Of a DNA stretch of 64,000 nt, positions 1 to 42,541 are shown one piece after another. Within the stretch, counting starts at the first letter, position 1. Each line of letters begins with the position of its first letter. The position numbers were made by a program, and so were the translations under genes. A model generated the notes under the pieces. The model did no database searches. It was not told the origin of the DNA and saw nothing but the letters and a program-made list of their open reading frames with translations. The DNA is from a virus (Duplodnaviria > Caudoviricetes), in IMG/VR virus record IMGVR_UViG_3300034157_000065, positions 64,001 through 128,000 of that record; one strand, given 5' to 3'.

Positions 1-85
1 ACCTGCCCGGTTTGTGATATACTATGCACCTATTATTGAAATGTTAAAATTTAACCCATTGTTCACTATTTAAGAGGATTTAATA

Positions 86-38669: not shown

Positions 38670-39302
38670 ATGCAAGAAAATATAATTAAAATTAAAGAAA
38701 CCTGTTTGAAGCTAGGCTTTCCAGAAGACTTTATAAATTGTTTACATATTACTGATGATGAAATGGATTCTGTTTTTTGTTCTGTTGTAATCAATGATTC
38801 TTCTGGACTCCCATTGTGTTCTGTTAATTTTATTAACACATCACAAGATGATTCTAAAAGTTTCTTGATGACATTTGACTTTATACATCAACAAGAGTTC
38901 TTAAAAAAACTATGGAATAATGATCATTCTTGTTCTATTATGTTTGATGGTGATTTAAATTTTGTAAATTTACAATCTAGTTCTCATTTAAATATCACAA
39001 ACGAAAAAACAGGAAAAAAATATTATTTAATAACGACCTTTCAATTTGATATTAATTCAGAACTACATACCATCCATAGTTCAGAAGTCAGTAATGGTGA
39101 TGAAGAACCATTCCATTTTAATAGAATTAAAGAAAATATGTTGTCAATTGATGATGAAACCATCTTAATTGAATTTATTAAATATAGACATAATCCATCT
39201 ATTATCGAGACAGTTCCTGAATTTTACATTCCTTCTGCCTATGACTTTAATTCAGAAGAATTTAAAAGCCGTATTTCATTAGCTAAAATGATGATGATTT
39301 AA
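38670..39302 (+). CDS. hypothetical protein, C-terminal MxxI-tag family (paralogue of 38008)
   Basis: ends VPEFYIPSAYDFNSEEFKSRISLAKMMMI. Confidence 0.85.
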   Translation: MQENIIKIKETCLKLGFPEDFINCLHITDDEMDSVFCSVVINDSSGLPLCSVNFINTSQDDSKSFLMTFDFIHQQEFLKKLWNNDHSCSIMFDGDLNFVNLQSSSHLNITNEKTGKKYYLITTFQFDINSELHTIHSSEVSNGDEEPFHFNRIKENMLSIDDETILIEFIKYRHNPSIIETVPEFYIPSAYDFNSEEFKSRISLAKMMMI

Positions 39303-39412: not shown

Positions 39413-40567
39413 ATGAATCTTTTTCCAAACATCGAACACATCAATGATATTTTGCCAGCTTTGGCAGGTAAAACCTATATCGGTGTGAACAAGCAATCTA
39501 ACGGTGCAACCGTTCTTTGCTACAACATCAGCAACGGTGAATCCTTTGCTACGCCTTTTGAAAAAGAATGCCGTGGTATCACCTTTGACCGTGATGGTAA
39601 AATTGTAAACCGTCCTTTGCACAAGTTTTTCAACTTGGCAGAGCGTGAAGAAGTATTGCCACACAACATTAACTGGGATGATGTGGTTGCTGTCTTCGAT
39701 AAGATGGATGGTTCCATGATTACTGCTGGTGTGTTTCATGGAGATGTTTTTGTAAAATCCAAAAAGTCTTTTGAATCTGATGTGGCTGTGTCGGCTTTGG
39801 CGTATGTTAAAGCAAACCAGAAATACGAAGATTTTATTAAGCATTGTGCATCCTTGGATTTGACACCAATCTTTGAATACACTTCGCCAAACAACCGTAT
39901 CGTGTTGCGTTACGATGAAGAAAAAATGACGTTGTTGCATGTGCGTCATACCATTACTGGTGCTTATTTTATGCCAGATGAAGTCGCAGCTTTGGCAAAA
40001 GAGTTTGATATTCCAGTTAACGTTCCATTGTTTGGTAAAGGTTTCGACTTGAAAGCATTGTTGCATTCGTTGGATACTGTAGAAGGGATTGAAGGTTACG
40101 TTATTCAGTTCTCTAACGGTAATATGGTTAAGGTAAAAACGACTTGGTATGTTAACTTACACCACGCAGTAACATTCGTGCGTATTCGTGACATTGCTCG
40201 CTTGGTTTTATCCGAGAAAATTGACGACTACATTGCATTTGTTGCATTACATGCAAAAGACGCTGATTTGACTCACATCCATTACATCAATGATACGATT
40301 AAAGCAGAAATTGAAGGCATTAAGAAAGACGTTGCAGATATTTTGGCTCAGCATGAAGGTGTTGATTTCAAAACCTTGGCAACCACTTACTTGGGTCATC
40401 CATATTTCTCTTTCATCATGACTACCGCTCGCGGTAAAGAAGTTGATTACTTGGATTACTATGAACGCAACCGTTTGAAAGAAGTCTGGTCTTTGGAGCA
40501 AGTTGACTTGGGCAACTTCACAGGGATTGATGATTCTGATGATGAAGTTCCCGTAGACGAAGATTAA
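39413..40567 (+). CDS. rnlA: T4 Rnl1 (RnlA)-type RNA ligase
   Basis: ECRGI.F, RPLHKFFN, KMDGS motif I, EYTSPNNRIV, EGYV, VKVKT.WY..LH. Confidence 0.92.
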   Translation: MNLFPNIEHINDILPALAGKTYIGVNKQSNGATVLCYNISNGESFATPFEKECRGITFDRDGKIVNRPLHKFFNLAEREEVLPHNINWDDVVAVFDKMDGSMITAGVFHGDVFVKSKKSFESDVAVSALAYVKANQKYEDFIKHCASLDLTPIFEYTSPNNRIVLRYDEEKMTLLHVRHTITGAYFMPDEVAALAKEFDIPVNVPLFGKGFDLKALLHSLDTVEGIEGYVIQFSNGNMVKVKTTWYVNLHHAVTFVRIRDIARLVLSEKIDDYIAFVALHAKDADLTHIHYINDTIKAEIEGIKKDVADILAQHEGVDFKTLATTYLGHPYFSFIMTTARGKEVDYLDYYERNRLKEVWSLEQVDLGNFTGIDDSDDEVPVDED

Positions 40568-40643
40568 TCACTAGCATCAATATAAGACGTTCTTCGGAAC
40601 GTCTTTTTTAATCAATTCATTTCTATGATTGGAGATACACATT

Positions 40644-41162
40644 ATGGAAAAAGTTAACGATAGTTTCAGTTCTGTTATGATGTCATGCACAAAAAATGTA
40701 TTGTTAACCATAGCAGGTATTTGTTTGGTTTATTTTTCGTTCCTATTTGTAACTGATAATTGGACTTCTATAAGTAACAATTTCATGTCTTTTTTGATGA
40801 TTTTTAAACCTCTTAAAACGTTCCTATTTGAACACTTAGGTAAAATATTTATAGGTTGGTTAATTCTTTCAGTTTGGAGTTGTTGCATTCTCTACAAAAT
40901 TGAAGTCTCAGATGTTACAATTAAGACTCCTGCTGCTTTAAGTGCCCTCGCATTCATGCTCATACCTACTGGCAGTTTGATCTTATTTATGTCAGCTACG
41001 GTTTTGGATTCATGGTTTATCAGTGCAGTCTGTGTTATTATTGCTTTCCTAATGTTATTCACTTTTTTGATTATATCTTCTTGTCTTTTGTTTCCGGGGA
41101 CACTAACCCCCGTAGAAAGTAGTCCAGAACAGTTAGATTTATTCAACAATACACCGCAATAA
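40644..41162 (+). CDS. 4-TM membrane protein with C-terminal QLDLF motif (paralogue of 41287)
   Basis: four hydrophobic segments; SPEQLDLF at 41130-41144. Confidence 0.8.
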   Translation: MEKVNDSFSSVMMSCTKNVLLTIAGICLVYFSFLFVTDNWTSISNNFMSFLMIFKPLKTFLFEHLGKIFIGWLILSVWSCCILYKIEVSDVTIKTPAALSALAFMLIPTGSLILFMSATVLDSWFISAVCVIIAFLMLFTFLIISSCLLFPGTLTPVESSPEQLDLFNNTPQ

Positions 41163-41286
41163 TTGATAAAAGGCATTCTTCGGAATGTCTTTTTTTGTTT
41201 TAAGATAAATGTTTATTTACACGACCCATTGTTGACTTTTTTTTTATCAATAATATTATATAGTCAACTTATTGGAGATATAATAT

Positions 41287-41820
41287 ATGGATGAAGTTAA
41301 AAAGAGTGTCACTTCTGTTATGCTGTCATGTACAAAGAATGTATTGCTGGCAGTGGCTGGTATTTATTTATTTTATCTTTCTGTTGGCTTTATTGCTAAC
41401 AACTGGTCTTCAGTTGCTAATGTTTGGTCAATTATTGTAACTAATGTCAGTTCTTTTATGACTGTTTTCGTTCCATTTAAAGATTTCTTATTTGAACACT
41501 TGGGTAAAATTTTTACAGGCTGGTTAATTCTTTTTGTTTGGACTCTTTGTATTATTGTTAAATTGGAGTACCACAATACTGATGTACCCACCGTATTTCC
41601 TGTTTTATTTTTTATGCTAGTTCCTGTTGGAAGTATTATTTTATTTATGGTAGCCAGTGCTTCAACCGATGACGCTCTAACAGTATTTTCCATTTTTTTT
41701 GGAATTTTACTCTCTTGTTTTTTTCTATTGCTTTGTGGTGTTTTCTTAAATCCTGATCCTGTTGTTCCAAAAAAACAAGTGAATTCTCCAAAACAATTAG
41801 AATTGTTTGATAAAGATTAG
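41287..41820 (+). CDS. 4-TM membrane protein with C-terminal QLELF motif (paralogue of 40644)
   Basis: shares SCTKNVLL and FLFEHLGKIF.GWLIL; SPKQLELF at 41794-41808. Confidence 0.8.
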   Translation: MDEVKKSVTSVMLSCTKNVLLAVAGIYLFYLSVGFIANNWSSVANVWSIIVTNVSSFMTVFVPFKDFLFEHLGKIFTGWLILFVWTLCIIVKLEYHNTDVPTVFPVLFFMLVPVGSIILFMVASASTDDALTVFSIFFGILLSCFFLLLCGVFLNPDPVVPKKQVNSPKQLELFDKD

Positions 41821-41911
41821 TTCTGATTTATAATAAATTGACGCTTTCCTAGCGTCTTTTTTTTGCTTTATTGGTTTTGACATGCTATTATAGCGACAAT
41901 CAAAAAATATT

Positions 41912-42541
41912 ATGAGGTCTTCAATAGTGATTAATTTAGTTACCGACAAACCAACCATTAAAACCATTAAATCAGGTTTGAATTCAGAACACATTGAACA
42001 TCATGCCGTTCGGATTGATCACTGGGTGTATAATGCTCAAATCTTCCGCGATTTGCAGATGGATAATAATGGGTTCAAACCCCCTGCTGACATTCTTAAT
42101 TATCTTTATTGTGCTTCTTACAATGACTTTTTAAAAGCCTATAACATTACCAAGAGTAGTTTTGTTTTTGATACCTTCAGACGTTACAAACATTACGCCT
42201 TGGAATACCAAAAAGGATCAGATACCTATTACTTTACCGTTAGCTATAATTCTGAGCGTGGCATGGATATCATCTTTTATCCACACATGATACCTTCTGG
42301 TTTTGATGCTAGGGCTTGGAACGAGTTTGAGGGTGAATTGTATTTACAATATGCAAACCTTATGTATTATTTCTTGTCAGAGTTTTATGCATCAATTTTG
42401 AATCATTTGTTTGATACTTATGATGTTAATTCAATTATTGATAATTTCTCAAAATCATACCGCAATTCAGCCGGTGCTGTTGCTATTTTGACTGAGTTTG
42501 AACAAACTCGTGATATTACTTTAATCATGCCAAAATTGTAA
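41912..42541 (+). CDS. hypothetical protein
   Basis: 209 aa; ends TLIMPKL (borderline tag match). Confidence 0.75.
   Translation: MRSSIVINLVTDKPTIKTIKSGLNSEHIEHHAVRIDHWVYNAQIFRDLQMDNNGFKPPADILNYLYCASYNDFLKAYNITKSSFVFDTFRRYKHYALEYQKGSDTYYFTVSYNSERGMDIIFYPHMIPSGFDARAWNEFEGELYLQYANLMYYFLSEFYASILNHLFDTYDVNSIIDNFSKSYRNSAGAVAILTEFEQTRDITLIMPKL

Follow-up and report, generated by a model that had tools for sequence, protein, structure and literature searches.

Tandem four-helix membrane proteins of a huge phage carry a conserved C-terminal peptide that fits the grammar of bacterial clamp-binding motifs

Bacterial replication and repair have their central hub in the beta clamp (DnaN), a validated target for antibacterials, and to our knowledge the few phage proteins that act on it are all soluble. 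Phages are also known to organise DNA at the membrane through membrane proteins such as p16.7 and p1 of phi29 and the nucleoid disruption protein Ndd of T4, which bind DNA or terminal protein directly; we know of no protein of this type that acts through a clamp-binding motif. Our subject is a pair of tandem genes in a 64,000-nucleotide stretch of viral DNA (the window, positions 64001-128000 of the 192,830-bp IMG/VR record IMGVR_UViG_3300034157_000065), whose products are predicted four-helix membrane proteins that end in peptides matching the clamp-binding consensus. They would resemble the phi29 and T4 proteins in tying replication or DNA to the membrane, and the motif suggests that they may do so through the host clamp.

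The canonical motifs by which clients bind the clamp are Q-phi-x-[L/M]-[F/L] and Q-phi-x-[L/M]-x-[F/L], of which QLxLF and QLxLxF are the tightest binders. Position 3 shows a slight preference for Asp, the flanks are mostly acidic, and the clients include Pol II (QLGLF), Pol IV (QLVLGL), UmuC (QLNLF) and Hda (QLSLPL), with QL[SD]LF as consensus (PMC11139829, a 2024 review). The peptides described here share with the cellular clients the five- or six-residue grammar, the interchangeability of pentamer and hexamer, the disordered terminal tail and the acidic flanks. The clients, however, are soluble enzymes or regulators of DNA metabolism, whereas the predicted motif here belongs to a protein that passes the membrane four times and lacks an enzymatic domain.

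On the phage side, MuC and Mor of phage Mu carry terminal near-consensus clamp-binding motifs, as our proteins do. MuC has two of them, engages the host beta clamp, and is lethal on overproduction through interference with clamp clients (PMC12867686). Unlike the proteins considered here, MuC is soluble and activates transcription, putting the clamp to use for late transcription, and it has neither a membrane anchor nor any sequence kinship with them. Gp168 of Staphylococcus phage Twort takes part in host takeover and neutralises the beta clamp of the host by plugging its channel, which stops host replication. A similar neutralisation can be proposed for the membrane proteins by analogy, from which Gp168 differs in being soluble, in plugging the DNA channel, and in using no client pocket or clamp-binding motif (PMC8565349).

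The initial annotation of the window had called two four-transmembrane paralogues ending in QLDLF and QLELF. Both open reading frames (ORFs) are present, they lie in tandem with 43% identity over their full length (E 7e-45), and the two motifs are found exactly where that annotation had placed them, behind SP-x and three to five residues from the end (Table 1). Billions of predicted proteins were searched, both exhaustively and through word indexes, and gave only a small family, which comes to 27 distinct sequences with the copies read from five related loci. The membrane core of the family is moderately conserved, and the tail cannot be aligned except at its end.

It is this end that carries the argument. 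The initial annotation had made its reading depend on the motif being kept in homologues, and 24 of the 27 members do have a canonical beta-clamp-binding motif in the tail. The pentamer Q-phi-x-[LM]-[FL] occurs in 20 of them (as QLDLF, QLELF, QMELF or QLEMF) and a hexamer in the other four (QLNLDL, QLKLDL twice, and QLELLF), and one further member, P0018, ends in the near-canonical QLNFF. Exactly two motif-bearing copies are present in each of five records. The motif is retained down to 21-26% overall identity, and on long end branches, of 2.7 substitutions per site for P0016 (canonical QLDLF) and about 5 for P0018. When the tails, which are 20-34 aa long in the motif-bearing members, are anchored on the Gln, the linker at positions -12 to -3 before the motif has an entropy of 2.7-3.4 bits, against 0.64 bits for the Pro at -2, 0.00 for Q, 0.24 for L, 1.6 for the E/D/N/K position, 0.64 for L/M and 0.76 for F. 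The Pro two residues before the Gln is kept in 22 of 25 tails, so the earlier description of a Pro-rich tail is right for the pair in the window, while in the family at large only this one Pro is conserved. A D, E or N stands directly after the Phe in 19 of 25, in agreement with the acidic flanks of known motifs, and one to seven residues follow the motif. Codons vary synonymously between copies (CAG or CAA for Q, TTA, TTG or CTA for L, TTC or TTT for F), so what is conserved is the peptide and not the DNA.

The number of matches to be expected by chance was derived from the amino-acid composition of the record's 278 non-nested ORFs (80 aa or longer; 192.8 kb in all for the record). For the strict form, QL[DESN]LF within the last 14 residues, 0.01 matches would be expected, and there are two, one in each paralogue; for loose forms about 0.85 are expected and three were observed. 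The third loose match, P0020 (record positions 143740-144642, minus strand; L005:15743-16642), is a 300-aa protein that ends in QLDLIFKK, and we rejected it as a further client because this ending is not conserved. Its orthologues, at 76-77% identity, end in KLDIMFKK or KLDVIFKK, so the match is an unselected chance event and served as a negative control; an N-terminal signal anchor also suggests that its C-terminus lies outside the cytoplasm.

We therefore read the tail peptide of the membrane proteins as a real, selected docking motif. Judged from the sequences, the family varies only along the axes that the clamp pocket tolerates, the switch between pentamer and hexamer included, and this pattern is the strongest sequence argument for the beta clamp as the reader over something else; from it we infer that the reader is DnaN. 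The PCNA PIP-box, Q-x-x-[LIM]-x-x-[FY][FY], was considered and discarded, as the tails do not fit it. A docking motif for some other phage or host partner, whether in the cytoplasm or associated with the membrane, with a coincidental likeness to the clamp motif, would have in its favour that five-residue motifs are low in information, that the genome uses another C-terminal tag (M-x-x-[IVLYF], on 54 of 308 ORFs), and that the four-helix body is an orphan without functional clue. We nevertheless think this unlikely, although it keeps some weight: the clamp grammar is matched at each of the five or six positions, in the acidic flank and in the variants allowed, and we found no bacterial short linear motif, apart from that of the clamp, that has been described with such a form.

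For a cytoplasmic clamp to be reached, the side of the membrane on which the tail lies becomes important. AlphaFold2 (AF2), run with the 27-sequence alignment, predicts four long helices in each paralogue, which bears out the earlier call, and hydropathy gives four strong hydrophobic segments in most family members. The last 23 residues are low-confidence coil in both models, and the stretch between helix 1 and the short amphipathic helix (residues 38-61) has a predicted local distance difference test score (pLDDT) below 50 in both. With four spans, both termini fall on one side of the membrane. The N-terminus has two to four Lys or Arg within about 17 residues, and over the 27 distinct members Lys plus Arg comes to 3.9 for the N-terminus and loop 2 together, versus 2.4 for loops 1 and 3. 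The N-terminal side is the richer in 20 of the 27 members, and in 25 of the 27 when the tail is counted; some tails are themselves strongly basic, with six Lys in 20 residues in P0016 and seven Lys or Arg in P0018. By the positive-inside rule, the side of a membrane protein that is rich in Lys and Arg is the cytoplasmic one. The four helices and this bias thus favour a cytoplasmic N-terminus and C-tail, and the placement of the tail beside the N-terminus in the cytoplasm by the initial annotation is supported at the level of prediction.

The residues directly before helix 1, S14-C15-T16 (window positions 40683-40691 and 41326-41334), are invariant or nearly so, as are a Trp and a Cys in helix 2 and a Lys at the end of that helix. 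In the four-helix model both cysteines come close to the same, cytoplasmic, membrane face, where a role in packing, a metal site or a modification is conceivable. We also considered whether the S-C at residues 14-15 could be the lipobox of a lipoprotein. This was rejected: the preceding stretch is short and only weakly hydrophobic, and the true hydrophobic helix comes after the Cys. The lipobox rule, moreover, permits no charge at the positions where Lys 5-6 fall.

Taken together, we put the chance that these proteins hold the host clamp, as a trap or tether anchored in the membrane, at about even. Several observations weigh against that reading. Two of the 27 members, P0013 and P0014, have no motif, and the tail of P0014 is only seven residues long. 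The replication module of the phage is not within the 192-kb record, and RsoM2USA, a 344-kb Ralstonia phage and the nearest cultured relative by RNA ligase, encodes a PolB of the T4 type and, behind it, a processivity factor with a weak likeness to gp45 (phrog_223, E 3e-7). In T4, the gp45 ligands are described as having 'hydrophobic and acidic C-termini', carried on linkers that diverge and differ in length (PMC2988020). Finally, loop 1 holds conserved Lys residues (K-x-x-K...H-L-G-K), and if the loop-1 stretch of paralogue 2 and P0002 spans the membrane, the tail would be periplasmic. The conserved lysines and the possible fifth span keep us from calling the topology settled.

P0013, for its part, is the middle copy of a triplet (L009:9986-10522 and L011:9986-10522) in which the motif has decayed to PNPFF and the frame reads 19 residues further, and the flanking copies of the triplet retain the motif.

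Since RsoM2USA has PolB and a gp45-like factor, the phage probably brings its own replisome by analogy. This would make sequestration of the host clamp harmless to the phage, yet it also supplies a rival reader. The tail could then dock on the phage's own clamp, either a gp45-like trimer or a phage DnaN homologue, and anchor phage replication or clamp-dependent late transcription at the membrane. The likely presence of such a T4-type clamp was left out of the earlier reading. The RNA ligases of the element and RsoM2USA are 44% identical, and the tails of our family resemble the gp45 ligands gp43, gp55 and gp33, whose C-terminal epitope is likewise short and hydrophobic-acidic and sits on a linker that varies in sequence and length (PMC2988020). 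Genes for DnaN, gp45, PolA and PolB were not found in the record and its four IMG/VR relatives, all five of which are fragments (22-59% complete), and PF09116 and PF02916 were likewise not found in the 192-kb record (59% complete); a phage clamp may thus lie elsewhere. RsoM2USA itself has no DnaN.

A closer look at the tails weakens this alternative. In the RsoM2USA group, PolB has the endings NSLLEF, DTLLEF and DDLLEF-COOH, at the extreme C-terminus and with no invariant Q-L, whereas our family has an invariant Gln, further residues after the motif, and a pentamer-to-hexamer variation that is specific to beta-clamp grammar. No ...LLEF tails occur in the 192-kb record. The gp45 clamp is moreover a PCNA-like trimer with another motif grammar, and the carriers of its motif are polymerases or sigma-like factors and not membrane proteins. 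On account of the different grammar and the extreme terminal position of the ...LLEF tails we weight the host clamp above a phage clamp, and regard docking on the phage's own clamp as rather unlikely. The polymerase ends in question lie at L015:21632-21790 (RsoM2USA), L019:5722-8355 and L020:5719-8355, and in L020 a 136-aa ORF next to PolB (L020:8355-8765) ends in VSLLEF; these ...LLEF tails are candidate client tails for the gp45-like clamp of the RsoM2USA group.

That the tail is instead periplasmic, with the N-terminus outside or with five spans, and that these are ordinary phage envelope proteins (for superinfection exclusion, holin-like or other) with a periplasmic ligand, is improbable: hydropathy does score a fifth segment in loop 1 of paralogue 2, P0002 and P0007, and the conserved loop-1 Lys and the low AF2 score of residues 38-61 could be taken the same way, but residues 42-58 of paralogue 2 are weakly hydrophobic and form no helix in AF2 (pLDDT below 50), loop 1 is too short for a span in most members (eight hydrophobic residues in paralogue 1), the charge of the N-terminus and of several tails points the other way, and no endolysin, spanin or other lysis genes are adjacent.

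The two genes have transcription signals of their own (Table 1), and each is followed by a terminator-like hairpin with a T-run. The ATG at 40644 is most likely the start of paralogue 1, since it is preceded by GGAGA, the alternative TTG at 40629 overlaps this GGAGA, and the homologues all begin with MEKV or MDKV. No promoter-like site is present in the 38 nt between the hairpin that ends the RNA ligase gene and this start. Before paralogue 2, the TTGACT and TATTAT hexamers are invariant in the five related records. The conserved sigma-70-type promoter and the terminators around paralogue 2 would fit expression by the host RNA polymerase, and thus early expression. The intergenic unit at 41160-41292, with its equivalents in L009-L012, is conserved as a TTCG-loop terminator, a T-run, TTGACT, 16 nt, TATTAT and GGAG, and the sequence around it drifts among the five related records.

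Table 1. Features of the two membrane-protein genes and their upstream neighbour (nucleotide positions are those of the window; helices are given in residues).
Feature	Position	Strand	Basis and remarks
RNA ligase, T4 Rnl1-type	39413..40567	+	PF09511 E 1e-31; phrog_562 E 5e-74; upstream neighbour, same order in L009-L012
Terminator-like hairpin (TTCG loop and T-run), ends upstream RNA ligase gene	40584..40605	+	sequence
Shine-Dalgarno sequence GGAGA of paralogue 1	40631-40635	+	nine bases 5' of ATG 40644
Paralogue 1, 172 aa, predicted four-helix membrane protein	40644..41162	+	ORF; AF2; hydropathy
Predicted helices of paralogue 1	residues 8-37, 65-88, 97-120, 124-149; short amphipathic 56-63		AF2; mean pLDDT 70.2; helices 2-4 72-90
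Disordered C-tail of paralogue 1 (residues 150-172)	41091..41159	+	AF2 coil, pLDDT about 53; hypervariable among homologues
QLDLF of paralogue 1, pentameric clamp-binding consensus	41130..41144	+	sequence; S-P-E before, NNTPQ-stop after
Terminator-like hairpin after paralogue 1	41168..41193	+	sequence; kept in relatives
Sigma-70-type promoter-like site before paralogue 2, TTGACT-16-TATTAT	41232..41259	+	sequence
Paralogue 2, 177 aa, predicted four-helix membrane protein	41287..41820	+	ORF; AF2; hydropathy
Predicted helices of paralogue 2	residues 8-37, 72-95, 103-125, 129-154; short amphipathic 62-70		AF2; mean pLDDT 74.6; helices 2-4 85-92
Disordered C-tail of paralogue 2 (residues 155-177)	41749..41817	+	AF2 coil, pLDDT 49-68
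QLELF of paralogue 2, pentameric clamp-binding motif	41794..41808	+	sequence; S-P-K before, DKD-stop after
Terminator-like hairpin after paralogue 2	41840..41856	+	sequence

The surroundings of the pair are constant among the related loci that we compared, which include L009-L012 (five related records in all, the whole record being G000). The RNA ligase gene is followed by two or three tandem paralogues and then by a gene for a 209-aa protein without known family, after which comes a GNAT acetyltransferase; the neighbours comprise the RNA ligase, two proteins of about 210 aa without known family and the acetyltransferase. We treat the RNA ligase as synteny context only and claim no functional partnership with it. 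The M-x-x-[IVLYF] endings of the whole record are also found here, on ORFs flanking the block of RNA ligase and paralogues, such as 38670-39302 (...KMMMI) and 41912-42541 (...LIMPKL), and were counted over non-nested ORFs.

The element is a dark-matter huge phage, with a GC content of 34%, the class 'provirus' and a CheckV completeness of 59%. The majority of its large ORFs have no Pfam or PHROG match, and two 787-aa paralogues match a virion structural family. The best relative of the RNA ligase is that of RsoM2USA, and another gene is nearest to Xanthomonas phages Xoo-sp13, X1, BUDD and XacN1 (200-385 kb) and to Aeromonas and Providencia phages. Positions 1,104,364-1,124,891 of Ga0308158_10000001, a metagenome contig of 1,859,102 bp, match the homologous locus of IMG/VR record UViG_3300031134_000610 (179 kb, 'provirus') at 100% identity, and each of the four long relatives is a 'provirus' cut, 152-193 kb in length and 50-59% complete. 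Given this match and these cuts, the element is one of three things: an integrated huge prophage, a mis-assembly, or a piece of a far larger replicon.

The membrane proteins themselves form a small orphan family. All members are metagenomic and come from huge-phage-like contigs of up to 204 kb, and two distant ones (P0011 and P0017) were not located in IMG/VR. Neither paralogue has a Pfam or PHROG match, Foldseek against the PDB gave nothing under E = 1.9, and look-alikes in the ESM Atlas (YWFCY, DUF6040), with scores below 0.9, were discarded as noise. There was no match to the membrane proteins in 50,697 phage records by megablast or tblastn and no relative of the family in the GTDB species genomes. 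A search of longer proteins gave no fused forms, and a profile search gave no further members.

Returning to the host clamp as the preferred reader, we infer, as the initial annotation did, that the consequence of binding could be sequestration of the clamp or a tethering that anchors phage replication. The proteins would sit in the inner membrane, perhaps expressed early from the host-type promoter, with four transmembrane helices, both termini in the cytoplasm, and a disordered tail of 20-34 residues offering a P-x-Q-L-[DE]-L-F of the high-affinity type near its end. The tail would enter the hydrophobic pocket in which host DnaN receives Pol III alpha, delta, Hda and the repair polymerases. 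It would compete with these clients while keeping the clamp, together with any DNA inside its ring, at the membrane. If the anchor is dimeric or oligomeric, both pockets of the clamp dimer could be occupied with avidity, an idea suggested by the two motif-bearing copies per genome. For a phage with its own polymerase and clamp, host replication and repair would be shut down while its own are unharmed.

In its most specific form the proposal is a dedicated integral-membrane 'clamp trap', in which paired four-pass proteins pull the host beta clamp and clamp-loaded DNA to the inner membrane. We offer this tentatively, as a possibility that is more doubtful than a trap or tether in general. Such a trap would switch off host replication, repair and the inactivation of DnaA while the phage uses its own polymerase and clamp. 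Full-text literature searches found no relevant membrane-anchored or transmembrane protein with a clamp-binding motif, and a membrane scaffold for this motif thus appears to be undescribed. If the clamp trap is true, host-takeover factors would gain a new class, and a clamp ligand anchored in the membrane would be known for the first time. A ligand of this type would add a new principle, in which the hub is relocated and not blocked, and would offer a minimal tool, taken from nature, with which to tether the clamp, or DNA marked by it, to the membrane. It would also show that huge phages use short-motif mimicry, which is common in eukaryotic viruses, on membrane scaffolds.

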